DNA of 64,000 nucleotides from Nanobdellota archaeon (GCA_030697505.1 JAUYPX010000026.1:53322-117321); one strand, 5' to 3'; counted from the first letter of the stretch, positions 32,685 to 63,983 are shown. The notes: generated by a model not told the origin, from the letters alone. Made by a program: numbers and translations.

Positions 32685-34541
32685 CTATTTATCTACCTTG
32701 TAAACGGTAAATTCGGCGTTGCTATACACTAGCTGAGCATAGTCTTCTATTTCACGATGAGAAATGTTTTTTTCATAAGGACCCAAAATAATGTAATTAA
32801 CAACGTATCTGTGGGTTAATTGCTCCCACTCTTCTGGAAGATTGGCATATGTTTTGAAAACTCCTTCTCTGAAATCCTTGGGAATGGTGCATCCTTTACT
32901 TCTGGGAAATGATGCCTCAAAAGTGAGAAGATGGGAAAATGCTTCTTCAAATAAAGAAGAATTATATTTCCCATCCTTAGTGCGTTCAAAACTCATCATT
33001 TCACTAAAAGCGCAAGGATTATTGAGAAATAGGATGTTTTCCTCGGAAACGCCCAACAGTTTATAAGCGATCAATCTTCGTGCGATTATTTCTGGAATGG
33101 GAATCGGTTCTACCACTGCATTGGGTATAAAATTATTGTTGTGAGTATAAACTGGAACAAGGAGGACCATTTCCGAGCTTAACGAGAGGATCACTTCATC
33201 TTTTGCAGTATGGTGGTTCAGCCATTCAAATAATTCTACTTGAGGACCAGAAAGTGTGTACACTGAGTAAGTATTATAAGAAAATGTTACCTGCCAAATA
33301 AGTCCAAATAAGAGCAGTAAGCCGATAAAGATAAAACTTGAGGATTTAATTATTTCTTTCAAAATCTCTCTTTTGAAAAATTTTTTTTCTGTAAAATTCA
33401 AAATATATATCCCTGCCAGAACCAGTGCCGGCCATATAGCTGTGGTCAACCAATGGCGAGGATTGATAGTGTACCCCATAATCACTTGCACATTCATGGC
33501 AACTATTCCTGCAAAAATTAGTATCAGCAGAAAATAAAAACTAGTTTCATTCTTTTCTTCTTTATTATTTCTGTCTTCAGACCTTTCAGATCTTTCACAA
33601 GCAGCGTATGTTAATACTATCACTATACTCAGAAGGAAAAGAGTTATGGGCCAATCTGGACTTCTAGTAAAGATAGGGTTAAGCCGGTGTAGTATTTCAG
33701 CCCGGTTAGCAATGGTGCTAATTGAGTTCAAGAAAAACGTTGTTCCTATTACTGCAGTTACTAGCCCAGATAAGGTTATTTTTTTGAACAGAGTAAAATC
33801 TTTTCTTAAAAGAGAGGTTATCCATATCAAACTTATAAAAATTATGTAAAAAGTCCAATAATAAAAATAGGTGTAAAACAATAATCCTCCTAAAATTCCG
33901 CTGATGAGAGCAGCTTTCCATTTCTGTTTCTTTAAAAGCCACCAAACCGCAAGCAAAGTTATAGCAAAAATAGGAAAATCTACTAAAACTGGATAAAAGC
34001 GGGAAAAGTAACTTATAGGTTGAACAATCTGATCGTTGAAGAATTTAAGCATATAAGTGGGAGAAAAGAACAGCAAAGGAGGAGCGATAAGAGAGAGCGT
34101 TTTGTTTTTAGTCAGCAGATATGAAAGGGCATATATCAATAATGAGCCTATGAAGGTAAAAAAGAAATAAGAAAAAATATAGGTGTTTACCACTCCACCC
34201 AATAACCAGGACATCACTCCTAAAATAAGGGAAGGAAAAGGAGAACCTGCATGCGATAAGATCGAAGTATCTTTCCATTCTAGGATATTAGAACGGGGGA
34301 TGAGATGCCCTTCTGCTGCTTCCTGCACATAGGCAGCGTAAAAAACTTCATCAACGCCTCGTGCATCCACACCTTTCACCACCAGAGGAGAATATATCCT
34401 AGAATCCTCCTGGAGCAAGGGAATGAGCAAGCTAGGCAAAAGAAAAATAAGCCCAATCAGCAATGATACTATTAATGCCGCTCGATGTTCCTTTATCTTT
34501 TTGTAATGATGGTGCAATCGTTCTTTCATTTTTATAAACAT
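32685..34541 (-). CDS. Polytopic membrane protein, PMT_2/ArnT-like GT-C glycosyltransferase candidate, paralog B
   Basis: N-terminus parallels 24651..26513 (LPSLLIPLLQEDSRIYSPLVVKGVDARGVDEVFYAAY...SHAGSPFPSLILGV). Confidence 0.45.
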   Translation of the reverse strand: MFIKMKERLHHHYKKIKEHRAALIVSLLIGLIFLLPSLLIPLLQEDSRIYSPLVVKGVDARGVDEVFYAAYVQEAAEGHLIPRSNILEWKDTSILSHAGSPFPSLILGVMSWLLGGVVNTYIFSYFFFTFIGSLLIYALSYLLTKNKTLSLIAPPLLFFSPTYMLKFFNDQIVQPISYFSRFYPVLVDFPIFAITLLAVWWLLKKQKWKAALISGILGGLLFYTYFYYWTFYIIFISLIWITSLLRKDFTLFKKITLSGLVTAVIGTTFFLNSISTIANRAEILHRLNPIFTRSPDWPITLFLLSIVIVLTYAACERSERSEDRNNKEEKNETSFYFLLILIFAGIVAMNVQVIMGYTINPRHWLTTAIWPALVLAGIYILNFTEKKFFKREILKEIIKSSSFIFIGLLLLFGLIWQVTFSYNTYSVYTLSGPQVELFEWLNHHTAKDEVILSLSSEMVLLVPVYTHNNNFIPNAVVEPIPIPEIIARRLIAYKLLGVSEENILFLNNPCAFSEMMSFERTKDGKYNSSLFEEAFSHLLTFEASFPRSKGCTIPKDFREGVFKTYANLPEEWEQLTHRYVVNYIILGPYEKNISHREIEDYAQLVYSNAEFTVYKVDK

Positions 34542-46105: not shown

Positions 46106-47623
46106 TTATGATTCTAAGACCTCATATTTATAGATGGTCACACCTATGAATTTCCTTTCCTCTTTCAATTCGTATAACGAATCCAATCGCAGTTTAAAAT
46201 AATCTTTGGTGTGAAAATTATGGCTTAAAATTAAGTAAGCATCCCTTTTTTCTGAAGCTCTTTCTATCAGCAAGTAATCATCCTCACCTGGTGTTATCAA
46301 CCGCACTTCTTCAACATTGCCGGAATAGTAGTAATCAAAACATAACTTAGCTATAGTGGCGCGATGAAGAAAGAGCACGTCTGCCGAAGTAGCATGACTT
46401 TCTATGTACTCAGCAGCTTCATGAAATTGTTCCTTGGAATCGATATCATAATAAGTGTATAACTCCGCTGAGGCGCTTATCACTATAAGGATGAAAAACC
46501 CAGTTGCCAGGCTATTTTGTTTTATTCGCAATAAGATTCTAGAAAGTAGGATGTAACCTAAAGGAAGCAGAAAGAAGCCGAACCTGATGATATGGACAGA
46601 TGAAAAAAAATACCTGCTCCAGATAAGATCCATCATGATAAAAGAAAGCAGCAGCAAAGAGATTATTTTTTGGTTTGAAAAATAAGTGAAGATGCGTTTA
46701 AGATGGCCAATCAATATGTTCAAATTAATTTTATCGGCCATGACCAGATATAAAGTTATGAAATAGAATAAACCGAGAAAAGCTGCGACAACTACCGCCA
46801 GGGGAAGTAAATCAAAGCCTAATTTTTCAATCAATTTTCCCCCAAGGGATTTATACAGGAGAGGAAGCTGATAAAAGGCCAAGATGTTGAGCCAGGGTAA
46901 AAAGAGCAGAAAGACCATCAAAAGAGCTAAGAAGAACTTTGGAGAAAAAATCTGCCTCTGGAAGAAAGGAGAAACAGTATCTTTTTTCTTCTGCTTAAAA
47001 AAATAACCGGTAGAATAAAATACGATATAACCTGCCAGAATCGCCAGGCTTATAATGTGCGTATAGAGCAACAAAGCTACAGAAACCGAAAAGAACAAGG
47101 TGTTTAGAACAGACGGTTTTTTCATGAATGCAATAAAAGATAGGAGAGACAGCAGGAAAAATGCTGCGAACATACTGTACATCTTCGCTTCCTGAGAATA
47201 AAGTACAGAAGTATACGAAATACTGACCAAAAAGGCAGCCAACAACCCTTCCTTCCAGGAGAAGATTTTTCGTGCCAAAAGAAAGGTAAGAAAAACGGTA
47301 AGAACCCCAAAAAAAACAGAAAGGATACGTAAACTGATCTCTGAATATCCAAAATACTCCATCAACAGATGCTGAGGAAGGTAATACCCGATAGGATGGA
47401 CATCTTTCTTGAGAGTTTCAATTAGAAGATTAACAGGTTTTGAAGCATAATCAAGCGTAAAACATTCATCCAGCCATAAACTCTCTTCACCTAAATCGTA
47501 CAGCCTGAGGATGCCTGCTCCTAAAAGTATTATTGCTAATACCCAAGCTATAATGACTTTATCTCTCAAATCCTTCCTCATGACACCTTTTTTAGAAGAT
47601 GGTTTAAAAGATTTCTGAAGCAA
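46106..47623 (-). CDS. PMT_2/ArnT-like GT-C glycosyltransferase (GT39/GT83 family)
   Basis: LRLYDLGEESLWLDECFT first-loop DE motif and HPIGYYLPQHLL (hPPLyyWl-like). Confidence 0.6.
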   Translation of the reverse strand: MLQKSFKPSSKKGVMRKDLRDKVIIAWVLAIILLGAGILRLYDLGEESLWLDECFTLDYASKPVNLLIETLKKDVHPIGYYLPQHLLMEYFGYSEISLRILSVFFGVLTVFLTFLLARKIFSWKEGLLAAFLVSISYTSVLYSQEAKMYSMFAAFFLLSLLSFIAFMKKPSVLNTLFFSVSVALLLYTHIISLAILAGYIVFYSTGYFFKQKKKDTVSPFFQRQIFSPKFFLALLMVFLLFLPWLNILAFYQLPLLYKSLGGKLIEKLGFDLLPLAVVVAAFLGLFYFITLYLVMADKINLNILIGHLKRIFTYFSNQKIISLLLLSFIMMDLIWSRYFFSSVHIIRFGFFLLPLGYILLSRILLRIKQNSLATGFFILIVISASAELYTYYDIDSKEQFHEAAEYIESHATSADVLFLHRATIAKLCFDYYYSGNVEEVRLITPGEDDYLLIERASEKRDAYLILSHNFHTKDYFKLRLDSLYELKEERKFIGVTIYKYEVLES

Positions 47624-47681: not shown

Positions 47682-48614
47682 ATGGAATCTATCCCCGCAT
47701 CATCAAAAGTTAAACCTTCAAAAAAGCCGAAGGTCATCATTTCTATCCCGGCTTATAACGAAGAAAGAGACCTAGGAAGAACTATCGGCGAAATAAAAGA
47801 AACATTGAGAGAGACTTCTTACCATTATAAAATTTTAGTATTAAATGACGGAAGCAGGGATAACACCGCCAAGATCGCTGAAGAGCAAGGGGCGATGGTT
47901 GTCTCCCATCGGCGCAACAAGGGATTGGCAGAGACCTTCCGTACGGAGATGAAGGAATGTCTGGAACGCCAGGCAGATATCATCGTCCATACCGATGCCG
48001 ATGGCCAATATGATCCGCGGCATATTCCCCAGCTTATAGCGAAAGTGCAGCAAGGATATGATCTCGTCCTGGGCAGCCGCTTCCGTGGGAAGATCCAATA
48101 CATGCCTTTCACCAAACGCGTGGGAAACATTCTTTTTTCCAAAGTGTTAAGCTCTCTGGCCAAAGTGAGAATTACCGACTCGACCACGGGATTCCGGGCC
48201 TTCACTTCCGAGCTGGCCAGAGAGATAGATTTCATCAACACCTTTACCTACACTCAGGAACAGATCATCAAGGCAGCCAAGCAGGGCTTTAGGATCGCTG
48301 AGATTCCCATCGACTCAAGAAGAACCAGAAAAAGCAGGCTTTTCAAGAATCCGCTCCAGTATGCAGTCAAGGCTTGGATAAATATTTTTAGGATCTACCG
48401 AAACTACGAGCCGCTGCAATTCTTCGGAAAAATTGGATTGACTTTCTTCGGCATTGGCATCCTCTTGGGAGTTTGGCTCGTATACCGTTTTATCACTTTA
48501 GGTAATGTAGGAAGACTCCCTACGACCGTCTTAAGCGCTTTGTTTATGCTGGTGGGAATCCAGATTGTTCTGTTTGGTTTTTTAGCGGATATGATCAATA
48601 ATAGAAAGATCTAA
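47682..48614 (+). CDS. GT2 polyprenyl-phosphate sugar synthase (GtrB/ArnC-like) with C-terminal TM helices
   Basis: ISIPAYNEERDL, VLNDGSRDNT and C-terminal hydrophobic pair (GLTFFGIGILLGVWLVY...LFMLVGIQIVLFGFL). Confidence 0.8.
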   Translation: MESIPASSKVKPSKKPKVIISIPAYNEERDLGRTIGEIKETLRETSYHYKILVLNDGSRDNTAKIAEEQGAMVVSHRRNKGLAETFRTEMKECLERQADIIVHTDADGQYDPRHIPQLIAKVQQGYDLVLGSRFRGKIQYMPFTKRVGNILFSKVLSSLAKVRITDSTTGFRAFTSELAREIDFINTFTYTQEQIIKAAKQGFRIAEIPIDSRRTRKSRLFKNPLQYAVKAWINIFRIYRNYEPLQFFGKIGLTFFGIGILLGVWLVYRFITLGNVGRLPTTVLSALFMLVGIQIVLFGFLADMINNRKI

Positions 48615-48665: not shown

Positions 48666-49394
48666 TCATTTATTCTGTGCAGAAAAAAAATCATCATCAG
48701 CTTTCTGCAGTTTGATGAGCGTCGTAGCTAACTTCTTCACCATCTCTATCGTATGCATCGCCGCATAACATGCCAGACCAACAAATGGTTGATTAAGCAG
48801 AATGCAGAAAAACATGAGATTAAGAGGATGTTCTATGCGCACGAATCCAAATATGAAAACAGTTAATTTACTTCTTTTCCGGGGATTCAGCTGAGTCATG
48901 ATTTCTGCTACCCGTTCCCGCTGCTCTCCTTTGTAGGAGATCAAATTTAAGTTGAAAAGCTTGGCAAATACAAATGCGCCGACAGCTATTCCGCCTAAAT
49001 ACAATGAACGTAGGTCATTAGTCATCTTATATGTGCCAAGAGTCAAGCCGCATAGTACTGCGATTATAGTTATATGATGCGCGATCTGCTCAAGATACTG
49101 GCCTTTCAAGGTGGATTTATTGCGGTATCTAGCCAAATTGCCGTCGACACAATCAAAGAAATGTCCAAGATGGTAAATGACTATTCCTAAAAGCATCCAC
49201 TTATACAAACCGGTCGACAACAAAACTGCACCGGCCAAACCCAAAAATAACCAGAACAAGGTAACCTGATTGGAAGTGATGGGAGTATTGATGAACGGTT
49301 TGGTAAAATAAAATCCGATTTCATGAACTAATTTGTTTGAAAAACCCCAATATTCCTTTTTGCATTTTTCCCTGAGTTCGTTTATAGTGACCAT
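48666..49394 (-). CDS. CDP-alcohol phosphotransferase-superfamily membrane protein with a divergent signature
   Basis: DCVDGNLARYRNKSTLKGQYLEQIAH resembles D-G-x2-A-R-x8-G-x3-D-x3-D, but the last two Asp are E and H. It has multiple TM helices. Confidence 0.5.
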   Translation of the reverse strand: MVTINELREKCKKEYWGFSNKLVHEIGFYFTKPFINTPITSNQVTLFWLFLGLAGAVLLSTGLYKWMLLGIVIYHLGHFFDCVDGNLARYRNKSTLKGQYLEQIAHHITIIAVLCGLTLGTYKMTNDLRSLYLGGIAVGAFVFAKLFNLNLISYKGEQRERVAEIMTQLNPRKRSKLTVFIFGFVRIEHPLNLMFFCILLNQPFVGLACYAAMHTIEMVKKLATTLIKLQKADDDFFSAQNK

Positions 49395-49404
49395 GATTCT
49401 TTCT

Positions 49405-50142
49405 TTATTTTTTGTTTAAGTTATTAATATTACTAATGTTACTGATCATCTCGTGTTTTTTAGTAATATAATACCACATTACGATAGCATCCTGTTCTGC
49501 AGTTGGACTCTCAGAATTATCGTAGGGAATGGCATCCTTCGCTCTAGTCAAAGGGCTTATTATCCTGGTACGGTCACGTTCATCGATATCCTCGATTATC
49601 TTGCGAACCTCTTCCGGAGTATGTTTTGTTTTCTCCCCGGGAGGCAGCATTTTGAAGAACCTCTTTACTTTCACGTCCATGGAAGCATCCAAAAAGAATT
49701 TCCAATCGGCATTAGGAAATACCGTTGTTCCAGTATCACGCCCTTCGACAACAAAACCGCCTTGGCTGGCAATACTGCGTTGAAGCTCCAGAAGCTTTTC
49801 TCTGACCGCAGGAATGCTTGCGACTTTTGAAGCTAAAGAAACAACTTCATTTGAAGTTATGCTCGCAGCCACGTCCTCGCCGTTCAAAAATAAATGACTC
49901 TCGCCTTGGACTGATCTAAATTCCATAGTCACCGCTTTCATGGCCTTGATGATATCCTTCTCCTCTGCCAAACCTTTTTTTTTGACGAAGTATCCGATAG
50001 CGCGGAACATCGCTCCCGTATTCAGATACTGGTATCCCATCAGCTTAGCCAGCGCTTTTGCAGAAGTTGATTTTCCGGTCCATGAAGAGCCATCGATGGT
50101 AATGATCATCTTTTCTCTTTTCTTTCCGCCTTCCATGACCAA
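49405..50142 (-). CDS. cmk: Cytidylate kinase, bacterial type
   Basis: ITIDGSSWTGKSTSAKALAKLMGYQYLNTGAMFRAIGY aligns closely to E. coli Cmk (ITIDGPSGAGKGT...DSGAIYR). DERDRTRIISPL ~ ERDDRDRNRAVAPL. The ORF track uses a TTG start; the true start is probably an internal ATG near 50115. Confidence 0.8.
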   Translation of the reverse strand: MVMEGGKKREKMIITIDGSSWTGKSTSAKALAKLMGYQYLNTGAMFRAIGYFVKKKGLAEEKDIIKAMKAVTMEFRSVQGESHLFLNGEDVAASITSNEVVSLASKVASIPAVREKLLELQRSIASQGGFVVEGRDTGTTVFPNADWKFFLDASMDVKVKRFFKMLPPGEKTKHTPEEVRKIIEDIDERDRTRIISPLTRAKDAIPYDNSESPTAEQDAIVMWYYITKKHEMISNISNINNLNKK

Positions 50143-50199
50143 AACGAAGCAGAAAAGGTTTAAGAAGATTATGGAATAAGGTTTTATGTGAAAGGGTGA

Positions 50200-51351
50200 T
50201 CAACTGATTCTCTTTAATATATCTCGTAAAGCTCCTTCCGTAAGCTCCCGCGGATTGTTATTCACCCTCTCCGGATTAAATCCATGAGCAACAATGATAT
50301 CATGATGTTCTGGAGAGTTTATCTTGAGATCAACCAATCTTCTGGTAAGCCCGATCTGATCCATGAGATTATTTATCTTCTCTTGCAGCTGTTTAGAGGC
50401 CTGCACCTGAAAGAGCGAACATAATTCAGAAAGAGTTTTCTTGACAGATTCGGCGCCTCTTCCGTCAAGACAATCGTCATCGGTCACTGCACTATTGTAC
50501 AAACACATCTCTCCTAAAGTCAACGCGCAGGCATGGCCATGGGAAACTCCAAAATAAGAGGTCATCGGATATGAGACAGCATGGCAGGCAGTAGTCTTAG
50601 ACACATTTATCGCTTTTCCAGCCAGATTGGCTCCCAGCAGCATCGCTTCACGATTCGGTGCGGAAGGATTGTTCACCGCCGAGGCCAAATTATCCAGAAT
50701 TATCTTTATTGCTTTCCGGGCATATTCTTTAGATTCCTCTGTTGACTGGGTAGACCAATATGATTCCACGGCCTGGCATAATGCATCTATCCCTGTAGAA
50801 GCCGTGATATACTTGGGCAGATTGAAAGAAAGGTTTGGATCTAGAAAAACATATTTTGGCAGCATCCATCCCTGATGACCGAGAGAATATTTTGTTTTCC
50901 CGATGTATACGACGGCAAAATGTGTGGCTTCCGATCCCGTACCGGCGGTAGTGGGAATGGCCACAAAAGATTTCGGCTTATGAGCTGCAATCAATTTCTT
51001 AGTGATATAATCTTCCGGTACTTCATATTGAGCTGCAAGAAAATTAATCGATTTTGCTATATCAATGACGCTTCCTCCCCCGATAGCAATTACCAAGTCA
51101 CAGCCTGATCGTCTGAATAAAGCGATCCCTTTTTTAACATCTTCAAGCTGGGGATTGACTGAAAAATCAGAGAAAAAAATAACCTTGTAATCTGAAAGCA
51201 GGGATTCAAACATTTTTTGCGCTCCAGAACGTTGGTAAGAATTTTTCCCCGTCACTACAAAAACAGATGATGGTTTCTCCTTTTCTAAAACCTCACTGAG
51301 TCGAGCAAGACTTCCTGGACCGATATATTCATATTGCATCTTTATCTTCAA
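50200..51351 (-). CDS. Iron-containing alcohol dehydrogenase family (phosphonoacetaldehyde reductase candidate)
   Basis: GGGSVIDIAKSINFLAA Fe-ADH signature. 4-bp overlap with upstream ppd. Confidence 0.75.
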   Translation of the reverse strand: MKIKMQYEYIGPGSLARLSEVLEKEKPSSVFVVTGKNSYQRSGAQKMFESLLSDYKVIFFSDFSVNPQLEDVKKGIALFRRSGCDLVIAIGGGSVIDIAKSINFLAAQYEVPEDYITKKLIAAHKPKSFVAIPTTAGTGSEATHFAVVYIGKTKYSLGHQGWMLPKYVFLDPNLSFNLPKYITASTGIDALCQAVESYWSTQSTEESKEYARKAIKIILDNLASAVNNPSAPNREAMLLGANLAGKAINVSKTTACHAVSYPMTSYFGVSHGHACALTLGEMCLYNSAVTDDDCLDGRGAESVKKTLSELCSLFQVQASKQLQEKINNLMDQIGLTRRLVDLKINSPEHHDIIVAHGFNPERVNNNPRELTEGALRDILKRIS

Positions 51352-52484
51352 CTGCTTTCTTTTTGCAGAAATTCCATGAATTGTTTCTTATTTTCAAGAG
51401 GCGATTGAGTCGGCCTTCCAAGATTTTTACGCGCTCCTTTATTGCAGCGTATTTCCAATAACATAGGGCCGGTCTCCTGTTTCATTTTTAACAAGACTCC
51501 TTTGATCTCTTCAGCCGTTTCCGCTCTGAAAACAGCCTTATACCCATTTCCTTTTGCTATCTCTAAGATATCGATGGCATCAGCGGCAGTGGGTTGTCCG
51601 CCGACTGAATCGTGAGCAAAATTATTGAAGACGATATGATTAAAATTAACTGGCTGCAGTTTGCCGACCGTGGAAAGGATGCCCATGTGCATGATCAAGG
51701 CACCATCGCCATCAAAACAATACACCTTTCTATTCTGCTTCTGGAGAGCAATGCCTACCGCGATGGCAGAAGAATGTCCCATCGAGCCAACCGTCAAGAA
51801 ATCTTGGTGATGCCCTTTCCCGGTTGCTTTACGGAATTCAAACAACTCCCGCGAGGTTTTTCCTGTGGTAGAAACAATGATATCATCTTTATCAAGAAGT
51901 GATGCTACTAATTTAATCGCCTCTTCTCTAACCAACGGAAAATGAGTCTCTTGTTTAGTTTTTAAGGAGTAGGAATCAAAAGTCCCTTCCCTAACTACAA
52001 GAGCATAAGGTGTTTTGTGGTTATTCAGATGTTCTGCTGCTTTTTGCACCGCTGCCTTTGCTTCTTCTTCATTTTCAGGAAGAACAGCATAAGGAATCTC
52101 TAACACTTCCAGCAATGACAAAGTTATTCTTCCCATCTTGCGATGCTGAGGCTCATCTTTTCTGCCTGGTTCTGCTCTCCATCCGATCAGCAGCAGTAAC
52201 GGCAGAGAATAAATCTCTTTATCTGTAAGGGAAGTCAAAGGATTGACACAGTTGCCTAATCCTGAATTCTGCAGATAGACTACCCCTGCTTTTCCTGTCG
52301 CCAAATGATAGCCAGCAGCTAAGGCGATAGCATTTCCTTCATTTGCAGCAATAATGTGATCCTTAGCCGAAGTATTATCCGTGACATAGGCGCAGAAATC
52401 TTTTAGCAATGAATCTGGAACTCCGGCATAGAAAGTTAGGTCGTGTCCCTTCAACTGATCAAAAAAATATCGTGGTGAGATCAT
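51348..52484 (-). CDS. ppd: Phosphonopyruvate decarboxylase (ThDP-dependent)
   Basis: ThDP-binding GDG-X24-N motif (FDGDGALIMHMGIL...NNFAHDS) and N-terminal pyrimidine-binding domain. Operon context with PEP mutase. Confidence 0.75.
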   Translation of the reverse strand: MISPRYFFDQLKGHDLTFYAGVPDSLLKDFCAYVTDNTSAKDHIIAANEGNAIALAAGYHLATGKAGVVYLQNSGLGNCVNPLTSLTDKEIYSLPLLLLIGWRAEPGRKDEPQHRKMGRITLSLLEVLEIPYAVLPENEEEAKAAVQKAAEHLNNHKTPYALVVREGTFDSYSLKTKQETHFPLVREEAIKLVASLLDKDDIIVSTTGKTSRELFEFRKATGKGHHQDFLTVGSMGHSSAIAVGIALQKQNRKVYCFDGDGALIMHMGILSTVGKLQPVNFNHIVFNNFAHDSVGGQPTAADAIDILEIAKGNGYKAVFRAETAEEIKGVLLKMKQETGPMLLEIRCNKGARKNLGRPTQSPLENKKQFMEFLQKESS

Positions 52485-52507
52485 AAAAAAGAGAAATAAA
52501 TACGCTT

Positions 52508-53404
52508 TTATAAAGATGATGAAAGAAGGTTATTGACTATATTAAGATAAGATTCCATCCTCTGCAAGCCGCTCTTCTCAACTAAAGCTACTCCGAAAGC
52601 AGTAGGCGCTTTGCCGGCTTTAATTTTGTTGCCATAACTCCTGGCCACCACATCGGACATGCGCAGATCAAAATTTGCTTTAAGCTTCTCTCGGTCATCT
52701 AATTCAAGCAGATAAGACTTGCCATCATCAATACAATCGGCGACAGTTAATGCCATTAAAGCAAGCTTATCTTTTCCATGAGCAAAATCGTTTCCGCTCG
52801 CTGCACAAGGATTTCCATACTCTTCAAACATAGCTAAAATACTGTGAGGATTGTTCGGATAGTTATATGCTTCAGACCAGGCTGAATAATGTCCCACATT
52901 ATTGAAGCCAGTTCTTTTAGCGATCATGTTCGCAATTTCCAGATAGGCATTATGCTGAGCCGCATCGGCAAGAATTTGAGCATCTAATTCTATAGCCAAA
53001 TGATAAAATGACAATTCTTTTTCTTCTTGATCAAATTCAACACCATATTTCGCAAAAGCATTGGAAAGATCGTGAACTAATCCCATCGCGTACCCCACTT
53101 TAGGAGAAGGCAGTTCCAAATCAGGATTTCTTTCAGAGATGGCTGCGACCAATTGTGAAGTAAGATTGCCGACGCGTAGAAAATGGGCCATCCTTTCATC
53201 TTTTTTAGCAAGCTGTGAATTTGCATCATACACGACCGCGCTAACATCTCTTGCCCTTAACTGCGTAGGATCTTCACGCATGATCTCAAAAACATGGTGA
53301 ACTTTTCTGGTCAGATCAGAAACGCCACTGCCCGGAGAGCGCTGCACCATATTTTCTCCGTCGTAGAGAAAAGGCACTAGAAATTGGATATCTGTCGAAA
53401 CCAT
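52508..53404 (-). CDS. Hypothetical protein, possible HD-domain metal-dependent phosphohydrolase
   Basis: Spaced H...HD...H...D residues (MAHFL...GLVHDLSNAF...FYHLAIELD). Weak. Confidence 0.3.
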   Translation of the reverse strand: MVSTDIQFLVPFLYDGENMVQRSPGSGVSDLTRKVHHVFEIMREDPTQLRARDVSAVVYDANSQLAKKDERMAHFLRVGNLTSQLVAAISERNPDLELPSPKVGYAMGLVHDLSNAFAKYGVEFDQEEKELSFYHLAIELDAQILADAAQHNAYLEIANMIAKRTGFNNVGHYSAWSEAYNYPNNPHSILAMFEEYGNPCAASGNDFAHGKDKLALMALTVADCIDDGKSYLLELDDREKLKANFDLRMSDVVARSYGNKIKAGKAPTAFGVALVEKSGLQRMESYLNIVNNLLSSSL

Positions 53405-53463
53405 AAGATAAGAACCCTGATAGTTATTTTATAAAGGTTATGTAACCTAATGACCAAACTTTA

Positions 53464-54834
53464 CTAAATTTTATTTTTTCCTTCCTTGTTAAACCAAGGC
53501 ATTAGTTCGCTCACCGCGCGATCAGCATTTTCCTTTCCAATCAAAGAAAGCTCACGCTGCGGTTCGCCGGCAGCCCTTCCGCCTATCCTTAAGACTAGCA
53601 GCTTCCCATCTTTTCCACGGAAATTATGATGAACAAACGGTTTTAGGTACAGAGAATCGTCCGGATGAATAAAATCGTGATGCGTTTGTCCAGCAGAATA
53701 CCAATTGACATTTACTGGTGTTTTCCCAACATTATACACATATTGATGCAGGCCAACTTTTAGATCTAAACTGCCTACATCACTGCCTGCATCTTTCAGC
53801 ACCTCCATTTCCAAGGCTTTAGAATGAGGAAGATGACGTGTACCTGCTAATTCGACTAATTTGTATGCCGGATGAGTACTTGGACAATTCCATCTAAAAG
53901 TATCTTGATAATTCTTTACTATCACTTTTTCTCCTACCTTATTTGGCGGCAATAATTCCCTCGCATCAATATTCAAAGCTTCAGCTATAGATTCTAAGTC
54001 AACTCTATTTGGCAAAATATTTCCAGATTCATACCTTACTAAAAGAGCAACAGGAAGCGTAGTTCTCCATTCCAATTCCTCATAATCCATACTCGCTGCT
54101 TCCCTATGAAAGCGCAATAAAGAACCGAACGCTTTCATGGGAGTGGAAAAATCCATAGCATACTGCGAAGCTAACTCTGTTCCCAGCGCCGACAATTCTT
54201 GCTGAGTTTCCCCCGCTAATTTGTTGCCATAGGTCAAGGCGAGGATTAATCCGCTTTCTCCCGCATCGTTTTTGCGGGTAGCGAACGTGTGAGGCACAAA
54301 TGGAGTGATGTACATGGAATCACCGGTATTCATCACCGCTATTTTTTTCTTTCCATCTTCACCTTGGTAATAAAAATTAACAGGTCCCACGAAGTAGGTA
54401 AACTGATGCATGAAGTGGCCGTTGTTCCATTGCACTTCTGGATTGTCAGCCTCATCGTTATTGACAACACAAAGTTCTTTGATCCATTCCGGACGGAATT
54501 GGCTGACGCTGCTGGCGGCAGTATCGCGATATTCGTAATATGGTTTCCCGGCCCGTTCCATGACTCTGCTGCTCTGCGCTGATTCAGTTGCCCGCATGAT
54601 TTTAATGCCATTTGGAGCATCATCGCGCAGACAATAGAAATCACGTTCATTTACCGGCCAGATCTCTGTCGCGCGCTTGGCCACCTTCGCAGGAATTTCC
54701 CGTTCACCGCGCAAATAAGAATTAAATTTTTCGAGAGGAACATTAAGCTCGCGTGCCGCATCTTCTGGACGGCGTTTAAGATCGTTGATGATCCCTTGAA
54801 GATTCTGTCCGCTTCTTTTTTGATAATTGCCCAT
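53464..54834 (-). CDS. mpnS: Methylphosphonate synthase-like bicupin of the HEPD/MPnS family
   Basis: NNGHFMHQFTYF...TGDSMYITPFVPHTF parallels the HEPD NNGH...TGDSYVEPSYCPHTY block. Relative to the first His there is Gln at +4, Phe at +14, Ile at +36 and His at +42. No Glu ligand is present. Start is placed at the ATG preceded by a GGGAGG SD (Met7 of the ORF-track GTG-start ORF at 54852). Confidence 0.7.
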   Translation of the reverse strand: MGNYQKRSGQNLQGIINDLKRRPEDAARELNVPLEKFNSYLRGEREIPAKVAKRATEIWPVNERDFYCLRDDAPNGIKIMRATESAQSSRVMERAGKPYYEYRDTAASSVSQFRPEWIKELCVVNNDEADNPEVQWNNGHFMHQFTYFVGPVNFYYQGEDGKKKIAVMNTGDSMYITPFVPHTFATRKNDAGESGLILALTYGNKLAGETQQELSALGTELASQYAMDFSTPMKAFGSLLRFHREAASMDYEELEWRTTLPVALLVRYESGNILPNRVDLESIAEALNIDARELLPPNKVGEKVIVKNYQDTFRWNCPSTHPAYKLVELAGTRHLPHSKALEMEVLKDAGSDVGSLDLKVGLHQYVYNVGKTPVNVNWYSAGQTHHDFIHPDDSLYLKPFVHHNFRGKDGKLLVLRIGGRAAGEPQRELSLIGKENADRAVSELMPWFNKEGKNKI

Positions 54835-54848
54835 ATAGATTGCCTCCC

Positions 54849-56156
54849 TCACTCATCTCCATTAGGTATGAGCGTGATGATTTCCTTTATGGGCATGCAG
54901 AGTTCCTTGCTTGCCTCGTGACATCGCTTATGCTTTAAAATTGATTCTGCCGCCTTCACCATCGAAGGATAGGCGCTGCGCAATAGATGATTGGCATAAA
55001 TAACGATATTAACTCCGGCTTTCATGAGTTCCTCTTCAGTTACAGTAGCATAGGTGCTGGGTACAGCGATCAAAGGCACCCTATTTTCAAACTTCCGGTA
55101 TTCTTCGCAAAACTGCAGCACTTCATCAGGAGATTTCTCTTTGCTATGGATCATAATGCCGTCGGCTCCGGCTGCGATATACGCTTTCGCCCTAGCCAGA
55201 GCATCATCTATGCCTTTCTCCAAAATCAGACTTTCGATCCTAGCGATGATCATAAAGTCGTCAGACGCTTGAGCCTTCTTGCCTTCAGAGATTTTATGGC
55301 AGAAATTATCTATAGTGTCCTGGATTTGTTCTACTTCCGTCCCAAACAAGGAATTTCTTTTCGATCCGACCTTATCTTCGATTACTACCGCAGAAACGCC
55401 TAACCTTTCCAGCGTTTTCACCGTAAAACGGAAATGCTCGATCAGGCCTCCGCTGTCCGCATCTACGACCATGGGCTTGGAAGTCACTTCAAAAATTTCA
55501 CTGACCGTGTTGCTGATGGAAGTGATATCTACATATTCAATATCTGGCTTTCCTTTAGAGGTAGCATGGGTCAGACTGCTCAGCCAGGTCGCATCAAAAG
55601 TTTGCGGTACCTGGTTCTCATCTTTCACCATCGCTTTTTCGACAATAAGTCCGGTCAGGCCGTTATGAGCTTCCATCACCCGCACCATCGACTTGGCATT
55701 GAGCAGACGACGCAGCATATATCTGCGAACATCGGGAGTGACGCCTCGCTGCTTTACCTTAGTGATCATTTGAGTTGAAGAAATTCCCTGCGTATAAGCT
55801 GGTTCAATTACCTGGCCGCCCCATTCTTTCATCACCTCAATCACTCGTTCCCTTTTTTTGGCTTGTACGCCTGTTTTCCAGTCATCGCCATGGACAAAAT
55901 AATCTGGTTTCAATTCTTGCAGCGCCGGAATGTAATCATCATCTTCCTGCACGTAGACCCTGTTGACCATACGTATATTTTCAATAACTTTTTTACGCTG
56001 CTCAAAAGTCAATAATGGAAGCCGTTTGTAATTGGCGATAGCCCGATCAGTCAGAAGACCGACAATTACTTCGCCTAACTTACTCGCTTCATGAAGGATA
56101 TTCATATGGCCGTCATGCAATAAGTCAGCGGCCATGGGAACGTATACTGTTTTCAT
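54849..56156 (-). CDS. ppm: Fusion of an N-terminal cytidylyltransferase (HxGH nucleotidyltransferase, TagD/PntC-like) and a C-terminal phosphoenolpyruvate phosphomutase
   Basis: N-terminus AADLLHDGHMNIL (HxGH). C-terminal domain has IEDKVGSKRNSLFG (PEP mutase EDKxxxKxNSL) and IIARIES. A strong AGGAGG SD lies 7 nt upstream. Confidence 0.8.
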   Translation of the reverse strand: MKTVYVPMAADLLHDGHMNILHEASKLGEVIVGLLTDRAIANYKRLPLLTFEQRKKVIENIRMVNRVYVQEDDDYIPALQELKPDYFVHGDDWKTGVQAKKRERVIEVMKEWGGQVIEPAYTQGISSTQMITKVKQRGVTPDVRRYMLRRLLNAKSMVRVMEAHNGLTGLIVEKAMVKDENQVPQTFDATWLSSLTHATSKGKPDIEYVDITSISNTVSEIFEVTSKPMVVDADSGGLIEHFRFTVKTLERLGVSAVVIEDKVGSKRNSLFGTEVEQIQDTIDNFCHKISEGKKAQASDDFMIIARIESLILEKGIDDALARAKAYIAAGADGIMIHSKEKSPDEVLQFCEEYRKFENRVPLIAVPSTYATVTEEELMKAGVNIVIYANHLLRSAYPSMVKAAESILKHKRCHEASKELCMPIKEIITLIPNGDE

Positions 56157-56235
56157 CTCAAACTCCTCTTAACCATTTCCATACTGGCAAAAAATCAGTA
56201 TATAAACTTTTAGGAACAACAATACTTTTATGTAG

Positions 56236-56745
56236 TCACAAAGAGAAGTCTCTGTCTTTTATTTTTCGAGCTGGAACTCCGCAATAGACGCTGTTAGGGT
56301 CGACATCCTTAACTACCACGCTGCCCGCGCCGATGACAGAATTTGAACCTACCTTTATGTTTCCCAAAATACAAGAATTCGCACCGATATCAACTCCAGA
56401 ACCGATGATTGGAAATAGGGATCTTCTTTCTTCGATAGTCTTATTTTTACTTTTGTGCGCAGGTAAAAAGCGGTATTTGCTGCCGATGGTTACATTTTGG
56501 CTGATGATGCAATTTTCTCCCATGGTGCTGGCCCCAATGACTATTCCGATATAATGAGGGAACTTTGTTGACCAAGGTACCTGAGCATATGGAGAGATAT
56601 CGCATTTGAAAATGAATATCAATACTTTTCTGAATATTGTCCCAATACAGATTAAAAAAAATATGTTGGATATATAGAACGGCCTAACTAAATATCGTAT
56701 CAAAAATAGATGAATTTTGTCAAACATTTGCTTTAAAAGCGACAA
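56236..56745 (-). CDS. Hexapeptide-repeat acetyltransferase (serine/sugar O-acetyltransferase-like, CysE/WcaB family)
   Basis: IGASTMGENCIISQNVTIG...IGANSCILGNIKVGSNSVIGAGSVV hexapeptide repeats. Confidence 0.7.
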   Translation of the reverse strand: MSLLKQMFDKIHLFLIRYLVRPFYISNIFFLICIGTIFRKVLIFIFKCDISPYAQVPWSTKFPHYIGIVIGASTMGENCIISQNVTIGSKYRFLPAHKSKNKTIEERRSLFPIIGSGVDIGANSCILGNIKVGSNSVIGAGSVVVKDVDPNSVYCGVPARKIKDRDFSL

Positions 56746-62198: not shown

Positions 62199-63983
62199 GT
62201 GATCGACACAGCAATTATCATCGCCGGGGGCTTAGGGACTAGACTTAGGCCTCTCACCGAATCTACCCCAAAACCATTACTGCCCATACGGGGAAAACCA
62301 ATAATAGAGCACGTCATCAGGAATCTTAGGAAGCATGGAATCACTAATATCATCATTTCTATTGGATATAAAGCTGACCAAGTACAGGAATATTTCAAAG
62401 ATGGCAGCTCTCTCGGGGTAAATATCTCCTATTCCCTGGAAACTCAACCTCTAGGCACAGGAGGGGCAGTAAAACAAGCCTCAAAATTCCTTTCCAAACC
62501 TTTCTTCTTGCTCTGGGGTGATAATCTCATGGATATCAATATCTCCAAAATGAAAGAAGATTACCTCAATTATAACGCCGCTATACTTATGGCTCTTACT
62601 CATCGTGAGGATGTGGAAAACTTTGGGGTAGCCAAATTAGAACAACATAAGATCATCACTTTTGTAGAAAAACCGAAACGGGAAGAAGCTCCTTCTACCT
62701 TGATAAATGCCGGCGCTTTTATTGTTGATCCCTCTTGTTTGCAGCTTCTTCCAGAAGGGATATCCTCATTAGAGAAAGATTGTTTTGAGAAGCTTGCTCC
62801 GCAGGGAAAAATCGCCGCGCACATCCATCAAGGGCAGTGGTTTCCTACCGACACTTTGGAGAAATATTATTGGGCTAATACTGCATTTCAGCCTGATATC
62901 TATCTGCAAGAAAAGAAAGTGATCATCGCCGATGTCGATGACACTATCTGCGAAACTTGCCAGCAGATCTCTTCGGAGATGGCGGAACAGATTTCTCGGA
63001 TGATCAGACAAGGATATGAATTTGCCTTCATCAGCGGCACCAAAAGTGAAGACCTTCAGAAGATGATTTCCTCCAGAGTGAAAGAAAAACATCATCTTCT
63101 CGCTACTACCGGAACAAATTATTCCATCATCGAAAAAGATACCGTAAATGTCATATACAATAATTCCTTTAGCCAGGAAGAAAAAGAAGAGATTATGGCT
63201 GCCTTACAAAAACTTATCTCCAACTACGGGATTATCTCTTTAACTACCCCGGAAGATCAGCTCCAAGACCGAGAATCTCAGATCACTTTATCAGCTATCG
63301 GTAGAAATGCGCCGATAGAGGTTAAAAAGAAGTACGACCCTTCTGGAGAAAAACGCAAGGTCTGGACAGAATTCCTTAAGAAACATCTCGATGAAAATAA
63401 ATATGATCTTAAAATTGGCGGAACTACTTCCATCGACATCACTCGGAAAGGCTTAGATAAGGAATGGGGAATTAAAACCTTCGCAGAGCATCATAAAATA
63501 CCTCTAAATTCTATTGTCTTTATAGGAGATAAGATTTTTCCCGGAGGAAATGACTTCCCGGCAACCAGGATTGTAGACTGCATCTCCGTAAAGTCGCCTC
63601 AAGAAACATTGCAACAGCTGCGAAAAATAGAAATCTTAAGCAGAATCATCATCTCAGAAAGACCTTGGGGAGCATTTGAACGATTTACCGCAAACCAGAT
63701 CAGCACGGTCAAAATACTGGAAGTAAACCCGCAGCAGCGCCTTTCCTTGCAGTCGCATCAGCATCGGGAAGAATTATGGATCGCTCTTGATGATGGAGTG
63801 ATAGCCGAGATAAATGGAGTAAAACTATATCTCAAAAAAGGGGATAAGATAGTGGTTCCAAAAGAAGCCAAACACCGGCTCTCTTCCGAGAGCGGAACTG
63901 TCCGGGTCTTAGAGATAGCCTTCGGGAACTTTGATGAGAATGACATTACTCGCTATGAAGATGATTTTGGCAGAATGAAATAA
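62199..63983 (+). CDS. Trifunctional fusion: sugar-1-P nucleotidyltransferase, HAD-type phosphatase (PMM-like) domain, and type-II phosphomannose isomerase cupin (ManC-like)
   Basis: N-terminus AIIIAGGLGTRLRPLTESTPKPLLPI. The middle has HAD motifs (IIADVDDTICE...FIGDKIFPGGND). The C-terminal cupin has WGAFERF...LSLQSHQHREELWI...GDKIVVPKEAKHRL. Confidence 0.75.
   Translation: MIDTAIIIAGGLGTRLRPLTESTPKPLLPIRGKPIIEHVIRNLRKHGITNIIISIGYKADQVQEYFKDGSSLGVNISYSLETQPLGTGGAVKQASKFLSKPFFLLWGDNLMDINISKMKEDYLNYNAAILMALTHREDVENFGVAKLEQHKIITFVEKPKREEAPSTLINAGAFIVDPSCLQLLPEGISSLEKDCFEKLAPQGKIAAHIHQGQWFPTDTLEKYYWANTAFQPDIYLQEKKVIIADVDDTICETCQQISSEMAEQISRMIRQGYEFAFISGTKSEDLQKMISSRVKEKHHLLATTGTNYSIIEKDTVNVIYNNSFSQEEKEEIMAALQKLISNYGIISLTTPEDQLQDRESQITLSAIGRNAPIEVKKKYDPSGEKRKVWTEFLKKHLDENKYDLKIGGTTSIDITRKGLDKEWGIKTFAEHHKIPLNSIVFIGDKIFPGGNDFPATRIVDCISVKSPQETLQQLRKIEILSRIIISERPWGAFERFTANQISTVKILEVNPQQRLSLQSHQHREELWIALDDGVIAEINGVKLYLKKGDKIVVPKEAKHRLSSESGTVRVLEIAFGNFDENDITRYEDDFGRMK

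Follow-up and report, generated by a model that had tools for sequence, protein, structure and literature searches.

How would an archaeon equipped to make methylphosphonate (MPn) deliver it to an acceptor, and does its operon carry the machinery to do so? We analyzed a 64-kb window (the whole stretch of 64,000 nucleotides, from whose first letter positions are counted) from a tiny, uncultured DPANN ("Nanoarchaeota") archaeon. ORF translation of the window yields seven tightly spaced minus-strand ORFs that span 48666-56156 exactly, where a preliminary description of this DNA had placed seven co-directional genes; opposite-strand GT2 genes flank the block on both outer sides. That description also spoke of several 4-bp overlaps; overlaps exist, but there are only two, both resting on GTG/TTG starts of maximal ORFs (separate gene calls replace them with short gaps), and elsewhere neighboring genes are 10-59 bp apart. 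The features, from upstream to downstream, are:

56236-56745, co-directional with and upstream of gene 1: hexapeptide-transferase gene
56199..56206, (-): TTTATATA, an archaeal TATA-box-like element read from the sequence, ~43 nt upstream of the gene 1 ATG
54849..56156, (-): gene 1, bifunctional Fom1-type cytidylyltransferase (residues ~1-140) and PEP mutase (Ppm; residues ~148-435)
53464..54852, (-): gene 2, methylphosphonate synthase (MPnS), best match to N. maritimus MPnS (6b9s)
52508..53404, (-): gene 3, orphan HD-fold protein, putative metal-dependent phosphohydrolase/phosphodiesterase
51348..52484, (-): gene 4, phosphonopyruvate decarboxylase (Ppd; TIGR03297, 499.6 bits, cutoff 312.5)
50200..51351, (-): gene 5, Group III Fe-alcohol dehydrogenase (Fe-ADH; PF00465 and PF25137), candidate phosphonoacetaldehyde reductase yielding 2-HEP
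49405..50142, (-): gene 6, bacterial-type cytidylate (CMP) kinase (Cmk; TIGR00017 bacterial cmk, 181 bits, cutoff 136)
48666..49394, (-): gene 7, variant CDP-alcohol phosphotransferase (CDP-OH-PT; PF01066, 45 bits, cutoff 22), putative CMP-phosphonate:acceptor phosphonyltransferase

A GAGGAG Shine-Dalgarno-like element can be read downstream of the TTTATATA box, before gene 1. The gene assignments made earlier hold up, with domain or family matches directly backing six of the seven; the remaining gene, gene 3, is an orphan with a predicted HD-hydrolase fold.

Judged by homology, the operon is a complete MPn-making pathway: Ppm would convert PEP to phosphonopyruvate, Ppd would take this to phosphonoacetaldehyde, Fe-ADH would make 2-HEP, and MPnS would turn free 2-HEP into MPn. 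Gene 1 carries a cytidylyltransferase domain (PF01467, 64 bits) and a PEP mutase domain (PF13714, 194 bits; 389 bits against the TIGR02320 PEP mutase model, cutoff 320), and its translation shows an HxGH motif (HDGH), a GISST motif, and the Ppm motif EDKVGSKRNS. Gene 2 matches N. maritimus MPnS (6b9s) at E 4.6e-159 versus 3e-86 for HEPD (6b9r) and keeps every MPnS marker residue (H146, Q150, F160, I182, and H188, equivalent to Nm H148, Q152, F162, I184, and H190). The ATG at codon 7 of gene 2 may be its true start. Gene 4 has TPP_enzyme_N and TPP_enzyme_C domains; the top NCBIfam model for gene 5 is TIGR03405 (Phn_Fe-ADH), at 196 bits under a cutoff of 424, and Fe-ADH comes after Ppd in every related locus. 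Gene 3, whose HD-fold resembles nucleotide phosphodiesterases, is probably a nucleotide-type phosphodiesterase; several loci have the CDP-OH-PT without it (L003, L014, L015), and it is accessory rather than core to the pathway.

The cytidylyltransferase had been described as PntC-type, but the gene 1 domain is Fom1-type (PF01467), not PntC/LicC-type (PF12804), and aligns to the Fom1 CyTase domain (5x3d) with E 1.6e-47 and 57% identity across 134 residues. The Fom1 domain cytidylylates HEP (PMC6697681, PMC9088020), and this relationship gives more weight to CMP-2-HEP as the donor. Cytidylylation might be transient, as in fosfomycin biosynthesis, with CMP-HEP serving as a tailoring handle that is later hydrolyzed, for instance by a FomD-like HD protein, while the roles of the CDP-OH-PT and Cmk would be unrelated and lie in the neighboring glycan or lipid pathway. 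The Fom1 parallel, in which CMP-HEP is a transient intermediate (PMC9088020), the HD-fold hydrolase in the operon, and the occurrence of CDP-OH-PT paralogues and cmk in phosphonate-free loci as well (L010, L081, L094) all agree with such a scheme. We nevertheless consider it quite improbable: the window has no Fom3-like B12 radical-SAM enzyme and the radical-SAM genes of related loci are SPASM-type, the active site of MPnS retains the residues of the enzyme that uses free 2-HEP, L003, L014, and L015 have a CDP-OH-PT but no HD gene, and at least five rearrangements have not parted the CDP-OH-PT from the phosphonate genes.

Gene 7 encodes an integral membrane protein with about six hydrophobic segments, whose best solved structure is AF2299 (4o6m; E 2.6e-7, residues 19-222 aligned); DIPPS is matched at E 0.03. 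Its motif reads D81xxD84G85xxA88R89-x8-G98xxxE102xxxH106. Asp3 of the CDP-OH-PT family is metal binding and Asp4 is the putative catalytic base; Glu and His occupy these sites in gene 7, so that its activity is an assumption; some paralogues have I, L, V, or M at that position. The preliminary description had named an ordinary phospholipid synthase, such as PgsA, as the identity that would speak against its proposal; gene 7 falls far under the cutoff of every curated lipid-synthase model: archaetidylinositol-phosphate (AIP) synthase, 46 bits (cutoff 180); PgsA, 17 (109); PssA, 18 (107). The first of these is its best NCBIfam similarity, and AIP synthase uses CDP-archaeol and a phosphorylated alcohol. 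By analogy, gene 7 might work with the opposite polarity, joining a CDP-archaeol donor to a 2-HEP acceptor to give archaetidyl-2-hydroxyethylphosphonate and CMP, in parallel to PgsA/AIP synthase; 2-HEP is predicted to be made in the operon, and cmk would still fit because CMP is still released. This is very unlikely in our view, given how far the AIP synthase score lies under its cutoff, the lack of any role for the fused cytidylyltransferase or MPnS, and the fact that no CDP-archaeol synthase was seen in the 64-kb window.

In all close relatives, the gene 7 counterpart is linked to phosphonate genes. Across 54 species-level MPnS loci (9 DPANN-type and 45 thaumarchaeal or bacterial), a CDP-OH-PT is present in 8/9 of the former, in at least five gene orders, versus 0/45 of the latter (Fisher's test, p ~9e-9, with phylogenetically non-independent loci). 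Relatives of gene 7 at 48-60% identity adjoin cytidylyltransferase-Ppm, MPnS, and Fe-ADH in varying order (L003, L002, L005), and cmk and Fe-ADH are adjacent in 12/12 metagenome loci with a gene 7 homologue of at least 74% identity (L069-L080). Because all close gene 7 homologues come from one narrow lineage, conservation of synteny among them is partly shared descent. In loci that lack MPnS (L100, L104, L107, L108, L128, L135), further-off CDP-OH-PTs directly adjoin Ppm, Ppd, and Fe-ADH.

Gene 6 scores only 36 bits against the archaeal model TIGR02173 (cutoff 102), matches PDB Cmk structures with E 1e-37 to 1e-33, and has a visible P-loop (GSSWTGKST). A cmk gene adjoins the CDP-OH-PT in the window, in L003, L011, L012, L014, and L018, and in all of L069-L080; some DPANN MPnS loci are without one (L015, L016, L037, L044). 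The cmk/CDP-OH-PT pair, whose co-occurrence with phosphonate genes in relatives had been put forward as a check, does keep this company despite reordering, an outcome in favor of the preliminary description. The cmk of the operon could be the housekeeping copy, and one may ask whether gene 7, as an ordinary phospholipid synthase, and a housekeeping CMP kinase lie beside the phosphonate genes by chance, in a small genome with few places for genes and with a cmk that fits the housekeeping equivalog model. We find this hardly credible, since the linkage holds at 48-60% identity with shuffled order and in every close metagenome locus, since independent, distant CDP-OH-PT lineages adjoin Ppm, Ppd, and ADH, and since gene 7 lies below all curated lipid-synthase thresholds.

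As to the acceptor, the window as a whole (64 kb) encodes glycan biosynthesis, placing the operon inside a glycan island of >60 kb. Two genes lie beyond gene 7:

47682..48614, (+): DPMS/GtrB/ArnC-like polyprenyl-phosphate glycosyltransferase (GT2; PF00535), convergent neighbor and candidate acceptor maker
46106..47623, (-): PMT_2 (GT-C type) membrane glycosyltransferase (PF13231, 30 bits), possible user of the lipid-linked sugar

The GT2 matches P. furiosus DPMS (5mlz, 1e-17), GtrB (5ekp, 3e-14), and ArnC (2e-13) in the PDB. It is kept directly downstream in L011, L002/L018, L003, and 11/12 of L069-L080, and it is also found near paralogous CDP-OH-PTs in phosphonate-free loci (L081, L087, L094). 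Conservation of the PMT_2 gene beside the GT2 is limited to the window/L001 and L011, and its membership in the module is tentative. His-type relatives of gene 7 in glycan loci adjoin nucleotidyltransferases that would make a CDP-alcohol, together with Wzx-type flippases and sugar-pathway genes; examples are L066 (Ins-1-P synthase, nucleotidyltransferase, and flippase) and L009 and L010 (nucleotidyltransferase and flippase, with cmk too in L010).

The main alternative acceptor is a plain lipid. Gene 7 would then be a phosphonolipid synthase, moving the phosphonyl group from the CMP-phosphonate straight to an archaeol/DAG-type diether or diacyl-glycerol lipid and producing a membrane phosphonolipid, methylphosphonyl- or hydroxyethylphosphonyl-archaeol. 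All characterized family members that we know of act on lipids or small soluble alcohols (none has a glycan-type acceptor), and gene 7 is itself a membrane protein. The nearest described cluster type, Burkholderiales_CDP-OH, whose CDP-OH-PT is detectably related to gene 7, is predicted to make a phosphonolipid (PMC8942020, PMC5987646), and the scheme matches the proposal for the Burkholderiales/Nostoc "group 1" clusters and eukaryotic use of CMP-AEP with DAG. However, the glycan-island setting, the DPMS-like GT2 as the most constant partner, and the flippases and sugar-pathway genes next to His-type relatives all argue against a plain lipid, and we regard this alternative as unlikely.

On balance, we lean toward a reading in which an MPn pathway is built into a cell-surface glycan island together with a CMP-based delivery module for activation, transfer, and recycling. 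The Fom1-type domain fused to Ppm would convert CTP and a phosphonate (MPn, 2-HEP, or both) to a CMP-phosphonate and PPi; the six-helix CDP-OH-PT would take this CDP-alcohol analogue as donor and move the phosphonyl group to a hydroxyl of a membrane-bound acceptor at the cytoplasmic face, releasing CMP; and Cmk would return CMP to CDP, then CTP, sparing an organism with a small genome a drain on its cytidine pool. The preferred acceptor would be a polyprenyl-phosphate-linked sugar from the adjacent conserved GT2; the phosphonylated intermediate would then be flipped, and GT-C enzymes would use it to decorate a surface glycan or glycoprotein. The HD-fold protein might act like FomD, hydrolyzing the CMP-phosphonate for release or editing. 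We infer the donor (CMP-MPn or CMP-HEP), the acceptor, and all activities, and the steps beyond the gene assignments rest on synteny. Several points count against this reading: the Glu and His at the Asp3 and Asp4 sites of gene 7, the lipid or small-alcohol acceptors of the characterized family members known to us, the DPANN MPnS loci without cmk, and the narrow lineage of the close homologues. In addition, the Fom1 precedent is one of transient cytidylylation, not transfer, and MPnS by homology uses free 2-HEP, so that the cytidylylated species could be either MPn or HEP. Overall, the interpretation in the preliminary description is partly supported.

Its claim of novelty goes too far, since ppm clusters with a CDP-OH-PT gene had already been described: the "Burkholderiales_CDP-OH" group comprises 318 such neighborhoods (Li & Horsman 2022, PMC8942020), and Nostoc ppm clusters also have the gene (PMC5987646). 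Only the combination of MPnS, an archaeal host, and cmk appears to be new. The Burkholderiales/"group 1 phosphonolipid" clusters share with the window a Ppm-nucleotidyltransferase fusion, Ppd, a CDP-OH-PT family gene, and a predicted logic, known from predictions in both cases, in which the CDP-OH-PT transfers a CMP-phosphonate. In Burkholderia stagnalis (L067), a CDP-OH-PT distantly related to gene 7 (E 1.6e-16) lies upstream, 2 kb away from the fused Ppm and Ppd. The Burkholderia clusters differ in making AEP or 1-hydroxy-AEP (AEP transaminase and alpha-KG oxygenase), in using PF12804 PntC enzymes and a CDP-OH-PT with canonical Asp3 and Asp4, and in having neither cmk nor MPnS, whereas the window combines an MPn/HEP head group, a PF01467/Fom1-type cytidylyltransferase, a Glu + His transferase, cmk, and an HD-fold gene in a DPANN host and a glycan island.

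Nitrosopumilus-type MPnS loci (Metcalf et al. 2012, summarized in PMC9381506) share the biosynthetic core of Ppm, Ppd, Fe-ADH, and MPnS (MPnS 53-57% identical), and there, too, MPn esters are predicted on cell-surface polymers. In the thaumarchaeal locus L030, Ppm is unfused, the nucleotidyltransferase belongs to PF12804, and MPnS is flanked by three sulfatase-family genes; the locus has neither CDP-OH-PT nor cmk, so that its proposed attachment machinery differs from that of the window; if our reading is true, the phosphonate attachment route differs from that proposed for marine archaea. The fosfomycin pathway of Streptomyces shares the two-domain CyTase-Ppm protein, followed by Ppd and Fe-ADH, with 2-HEP as an intermediate; there, Fom3, a B12 radical-SAM enzyme, methylates CMP-HEP, and hydrolysis by FomD (DUF402) follows (Cho et al. 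2017, via PMC6697681, PMC9088020). The window is without Fom3 and FomD and has MPnS, CDP-OH-PT, and Cmk instead.

Eukaryotic choline/ethanolamine phosphotransferases, which belong to the CDP-OH-PT family, accept CMP-AEP in place of a CDP-alcohol and release CMP; they have the canonical signature, a DAG acceptor, and an AEP head group, and their relationship to gene 7 is no more than remote. Among solved archaeal proteins, gene 7 would resemble DIPPS of IPCT-DIPPS in that its donor would be a CDP-alcohol, not a CDP-lipid, whereas it differs from AF2299 in having no cytosolic N-domain and in carrying Glu102/His106 where AF2299 has Asp3/Asp4.

The phosphonate operon comprises seven co-directional ORFs at positions 48666-56156, just as the preliminary description had it, and profile searches firmly identify six of the seven genes, gene 3 being the exception.

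Genes of the phosphonate operon
54849-56156, minus strand: gene 1, cytidylyltransferase (CT) fused to PEP mutase (Ppm)
53464-54852, minus strand: gene 2, methylphosphonate synthase (MPnS)
52508-53404, minus strand: gene 3, orphan HD-fold protein
51348-52484, minus strand: gene 4, Ppd
50200-51351, minus strand: gene 5, group III Fe-ADH
49405-50142, minus strand: gene 6, bacterial-type cytidylate kinase (Cmk)
48666-49394, minus strand: gene 7, CDP-alcohol phosphotransferase (CDP-OH-PT)

The several 4-bp overlaps described earlier reduce to two junctions, both of which hold only if translation begins at the GTG/TTG that opens the maximal ORF, whereas the remaining junctions are gaps of 10-59 bp. 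A TTTATATA box ~43 nt upstream of the gene 1 ATG, with GAGGAG after the box, would fit an archaeal promoter for the gene string. A co-directional hexapeptide-repeat acyltransferase with a hydrophobic N-terminus (56236-56745) lies 80 bp upstream of gene 1 and has its own TTTATATA box; this position is kept in two comparison loci from other genomes (L012 and L013) and not in a third (L011).

Homology shows a predicted pathway leading from PEP through phosphonopyruvate, phosphonoacetaldehyde, and 2-hydroxyethylphosphonate (2-HEP) to methylphosphonate (MPn). The translation of gene 1 scores 389.3 bits against the TIGR02320 cutoff of 319.55 and contains EDKVGSKRNS, the Ppm motif being EDKxxxxxNS (PMC6697681); with both PF01467 and PF13714 found, the proposed cytidylyltransferase-PEP mutase fusion is confirmed. 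Gene 2 matches the N. maritimus (Nm) MPnS structure 6b9s at E 4.6e-159 (533 bits), as against 3e-86 for HEPD (6b9r) and 9e-8 for HppE. The diagnostic features of MPnS we take to be the 2-His-1-Gln iron ligands (Nm H148, Q152, and H190) and a Phe162/Ile184 pair that fixes the Gln and is Tyr/Gly in HEPD (Born et al. 2017). Residues H146, Q150, H188, F160, and I182 of gene 2 align to these five Nm positions in that order, and HEPD indeed has Tyr and Gly at the Phe162/Ile184 positions in the same alignment output; with its closer match to 6b9s than to HEPD and all marker residues kept, the protein first called MPnS-like is a genuine MPnS. The Ppd and Fe-ADH assignments likewise hold, gene 4 exceeding the TIGR03297 equivalog cutoff (499.6 against 312.5 bits) and gene 5 being a generic group III Fe-ADH by Pfam. 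Because gene 5 scores only 196.3 bits against the 423.7-bit cutoff of the phosphonate Fe-ADH equivalog TIGR03405, which is still its best model, its presumed role as phosphonoacetaldehyde reductase rests on conserved position and context.

The N-terminal domain of gene 1 had been taken for a PntC-type cytidylyltransferase, but it matches PF01467 only (64 bits against 21) and not PF12804 (PntC/LicC). Placed N-terminal to Ppm and highly similar to the CyTase domain of Fom1 (5x3d; E 1.6e-47, 57% identity over 134 residues), it is of the Fom1 type. Fom1 itself has the identical CyTase-Ppm architecture, and its CyTase turns 2-HEP and CTP into CMP-HEP (PMC6697681, PMC9088020); as 23.6% of Ppm proteins carry a PF01467 fusion (PMC6697681), the fusion in itself is ordinary. 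Given such a domain, CMP-HEP would be a serious candidate donor beside CMP-MPn, and a mixed CMP-MPn/CMP-HEP donor would be plausible, because MPn esters and 2-HEP esters are both present in marine high-molecular-weight organic matter (as summarised in PMC9381506). Fusions of a PntC-type PF12804 domain to Ppm occur in other DPANN MPnS loci (L016 1733-3436, L037 3875-5581, and L044 1171-3615; Pfam-confirmed in L016 and L044). In L016 and L037, this is a second Ppm beside a PF01467-Ppm fusion, with two nucleotidyltransferase types per locus; L044 has the PF12804 type only.

Gene 3 gave nothing in searches of Pfam, NCBIfam, and the PDB (phmmer and profile search), and no HD Pfam model matched it at E < 0.01, the best result being one of 14 family members at E 0.057 to PF01966. 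Its orphan family numbers 26 proteins; a profile search of a 5.8-billion-protein set brought in only three distant members. An AF2 model based on 14 near-identical family members failed (pLDDT 49), but once the three divergent proteins had been added, the model reached a pLDDT of 89.8 and a pTM of 0.90. Since this predicted model is confident and H74, H111-D112, H151, and D223 are invariant, in keeping with the H...HD...D metal-ligand pattern of the HD fold, the earlier label "HD-like" stands by fold and motif, though sequence models do not return it. Its nearest structural neighbors are nucleotide phosphodiesterases and pyrophosphatases rather than HD oxygenases; the protein may act as a CMP-phosphonate hydrolase with an editing or releasing function. 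The gene is dispensable in several of the comparison loci, and L014 and L015 lack it; L018 retains an HD-like gene upstream of CT-Ppm.

The two downstream genes are also of the predicted families. Gene 6 is a bacterial-type Cmk, with 181.3 bits against the TIGR00017 cutoff of 135.55, the P-loop GSSWTGKST, and matches to solved Cmk structures at E ~1e-37, whereas the archaeal cmk model TIGR02173 gives 35.7 bits against a cutoff of 102.1. Gene 7, of 242 aa, is a CDP-OH-PT-like membrane protein (PF01066, 45.4 bits against 22; approximately six hydrophobic segments) whose best structural alignment is to AF2299 (E 2.6e-7). Neither a second cmk nor a second CDP-OH-PT was found in the 64-kb window. 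The gene 7 motif, D81xxD84G85xxA88R89-x8-G98xxxE102xxxH106, departs from the full signature D1xxD2G1xxAR...G2xxxD3xxxD4 in having E102 for D3 and H106 for D4, and this Glu/His replacement is kept in all close homologues. An exhaustive search returned 4,405 relatives, of which no more than 7 reach E <= 1e-30; among the sequences checked, 84 have D..H at D3..D4, 35 have E..H, and only 10 the canonical D..D. Because most of its nearest relatives carry His at D4, gene 7 falls in a large "His-type" branch, of which we know of no characterised member. The possibility raised in the preliminary description that gene 7 is an ordinary phospholipid synthase is disfavored, as it scores far below the cutoff of every curated NCBIfam model (AIP synthase, 46.4 bits against 180; PIP synthase, 32.2 against 170; PgsA, 16.6 against 109; PssA, 17.7 against 107; ClsA, 22.9 against 240). 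In one paralogous subtype of CDP-OH-PT, Asp3 is Glu and Asp4 is Ile, Leu, Val, or Met, which leaves no candidate base at the latter position (L018 500-1267; L010 700-1437; L009 2-511; L081-L086); it often shares a locus with a His-type copy and adjoins flippases.

Homologues of gene 7 form only 28 clusters in the 5.8-billion-protein set. Its divergent relatives stay linked to phosphonate genes even though gene order is shuffled: L003 (60% identity to gene 7) has CDP-OH-PT, CT-Ppm, MPnS, Ppd, ADH, and Cmk in that order, L002/L018 (48%) has MPnS ... ADH, CDP-OH-PT, Cmk, and L005 (57%) has flippase, CDP-OH-PT, CT-Ppm. Absence of the cmk/CDP-OH-PT pair beside phosphonate genes in relatives had been named as evidence against a joint function; instead, the linkage is kept. 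A metagenome scan yielded 12 loci with a gene 7 homologue of at least 74% identity, in all of which cmk and Fe-ADH adjoin the CDP-OH-PT. In an MPnS-anchored survey of 54 species-level genome loci, scanned locally, a CDP-OH-PT is present in eight of nine DPANN-type loci (L011, L012, L014, L015, L016, L018, L037, and L044; the ninth, L013, is truncated) and in none of 45 thaumarchaeal, Chloroflexota, and other bacterial loci (Fisher p ~9e-9, for loci that are not phylogenetically independent). The expected co-occurrence with ppm-mpnS holds for the CDP-OH-PT in the DPANN-type loci; cmk is found in a subset (the window, L003, L011, L012, L014, and L018).

Farther afield, distant CDP-OH-PTs (25-35% identity) directly adjoin Ppm (often CT-fused), Ppd, and Fe-ADH in metagenome loci L100, L104, L107, L108, L128, and L135, from which MPnS and cmk are absent, an arrangement pointing to a widespread form of the module with a 2-HEP head group. 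Further His-type relatives are found in glycan loci, beside genes whose products would supply a CDP-alcohol. They are accompanied by Ins-1-P synthase, NTase, flippase, and GT2 genes in L066 and by an NTase and a flippase in each of L009 and L010, with a HIT gene and a CT-PPDK fusion in addition in L009 and a cmk adjoining a second CDP-OH-PT in L010. Fusions of 951-1006 aa that combine CTP_transf_like, PPDK_N, and a PEP-utilizers mobile domain recur adjoining His-type CDP-OH-PTs (L004 165-3020, L009 8675-11695, L094 14473-17454) and may phosphorylate some alcohol before turning it into a CDP-X donor by cytidylylation.

Several further features of the comparison loci are of note. A PhnD-like phosphonate ABC substrate-binding protein (L018 5253-6218; PF12974, 256 bits) directly follows CT-Ppm in a producer locus, with an ABC permease gene nearby. 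Opposite-strand radical-SAM genes of 518-539 aa lie between MPnS and Ppd in L014 (2904-4457) and L015 (11562-13130) and upstream of MPnS in L018 (7953-9569). A Fom3-like identity, which would imply CMP-HEP tailoring, was rejected, because L015 has a SPASM domain and the scanned L014 and L015 proteins have no B12-binding domain. Three MAGs titled "uncultured Methanosarcinales archaeon" (L011, L012, and L014) have loci collinear with the window and MPnS 74-80% identical; other loci, just as similar, bear Nanoarchaeota or Woesearchaeota titles, and the Methanosarcinales MAGs appear to have been misclassified.

The entire 64-kb window is a single surface-glycan biosynthesis island.

Landmarks of the glycan island
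13664-15151: Wzx-type flippase
17455-18477: GDP-mannose 4,6-dehydratase
27889-29649: carbamoyltransferase
47682-48614, plus strand: convergent DPMS/GtrB/ArnC-like polyprenyl-phosphate glycosyltransferase (GT2)
62199-63983: tri-domain NTP-transferase/PMM/mannose-6-P-isomerase fusion

It also encodes two C-methyltransferases, aminotransferases, SGNH/GDSL proteins, and GT1, GT2, and GT-C glycosyltransferases, including two PMT_2 GT-C enzymes; no tRNA genes were found in it. Four long ORFs (423-665 aa; 3923-5194, 24651-26513, 32685-34541, and 37440-39437) have no Pfam match at E <= 1e-3, and a 450-aa ORF adjoining the Wzx flippase (12310-13662), whose sole match, weak and C-terminal, is thymidylate-kinase-like (PF02223, 28.6 bits), may be a further nucleotide-salvage kinase within the glycan locus.

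The GT2 at 47682-48614 adjoins the cmk/CDP-OH-PT pair in the window, L011, L003, L002/L018, and 11 of the 12 metagenome loci, and close homologues (E 1e-128 to 1e-140) also turn up in loci devoid of phosphonate genes, near CDP-OH-PT paralogues (L081, L087, and L094). From the glycan-island setting and this conservation of GT2 beside CDP-OH-PTs, we infer that the acceptor is probably tied to the lipid-linked sugar product of GT2. A plain lipid acceptor, which would give a phosphonolipid, is a strong alternative; we know of no CDP-OH-PT with an established glycan-type acceptor.

In the proposed mechanism, the Fom1-type domain would cytidylylate MPn and/or 2-HEP, the variant CDP-OH-PT would transfer the phosphonyl group with release of CMP, and Cmk would convert CMP to CDP. 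That His106 stands in for Asp4 as general base is speculation. We consider it possible, if rather unlikely, that the His-at-Asp4 clade as a whole comprises not phospholipid synthases but cytoplasmic-face head-group transferases acting from CDP-X or CMP-phosphonate onto polyprenyl-phosphate-linked sugars and that, in DPANN archaea, it works with a dedicated CMP kinase to esterify MPn and/or 2-HEP onto cell-surface glycans. Dissolved organic matter contains methylphosphonate esters, which are regarded as a major substrate of methane production in oxygenated water, and we know of no organism in which attachment of MPn to polymers has been shown. If the proposal is true, non-marine DPANN archaea would be an unrecognised source of methylphosphonate esters fuelling aerobic methane formation. 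(The isolate names of two related MAGs, L015 and L017, contain "groundwater.")

The locus places MPnS in DPANN archaea and offers a compact candidate attachment route, unlike the sulfatase/LicD route proposed for marine Thaumarchaeota, a combination noteworthy to specialists and directly testable: the system (CT domain, 242-aa membrane enzyme, and Cmk) is small enough for in vitro reconstitution. It also points to a large clade of His-variant CDP-alcohol phosphotransferases, and its in-cluster CMP kinase is an unusual case of cofactor salvage encoded in a tailoring operon. In the literature searched, no paper mentions MPnS and DPANN archaea together, and we found no description of a CDP-OH-PT module with MPnS or in DPANN archaea, of an in-cluster cmk, of the Glu/His variant signature, or of a conserved DPMS-like partner. 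MPnS and a CDP-alcohol transferase are likewise not described together in the literature searched, a statement that does not extend to PMC8976061 (argolaphos/glyphosate biosynthesis), the one paper in which "methylphosphonate synthase" and "cytidylyltransferase" both occur.

The view that a CDP-OH-PT phosphonate transferase in an MPn locus is uncharacterised therefore stands for the combination with MPnS, but CDP-alcohol phosphatidyltransferase genes in ppm clusters have been described bioinformatically, in the 318 neighbourhoods of "Burkholderiales_CDP-OH" (PMC8942020) and in Nostoc (PMC5987646). Those clusters are AEP or hydroxy-AEP based, with a phosphonolipid as predicted product (PMC8942020, PMC5987646). 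The logic of the proposed module has precedent. The seven-gene Burkholderiales_CDP-OH core consists of Ppm, Ppd, an AEP transaminase, an alpha-KG oxygenase, two PntC, and two lipid genes (PMC8942020), whereas the present operon lacks an aminotransferase, an alpha-KG oxygenase, and a PF12804 gene; Ppm, Ppd, and a CDP-OH-PT of distant relationship are all that the two have in common. The B. stagnalis cluster (L067) has its CDP-OH-PT 2 kb upstream of a fused Ppm and Ppd; this protein aligns to gene 7 at E 1.6e-16 but has the canonical D..D in place of E..H. The Nitrosopumilus locus L030, with an unfused Ppm, a PF12804 NTase, and three sulfatase-family genes, has the published architecture (PMC9381506), unlike the operon described here.
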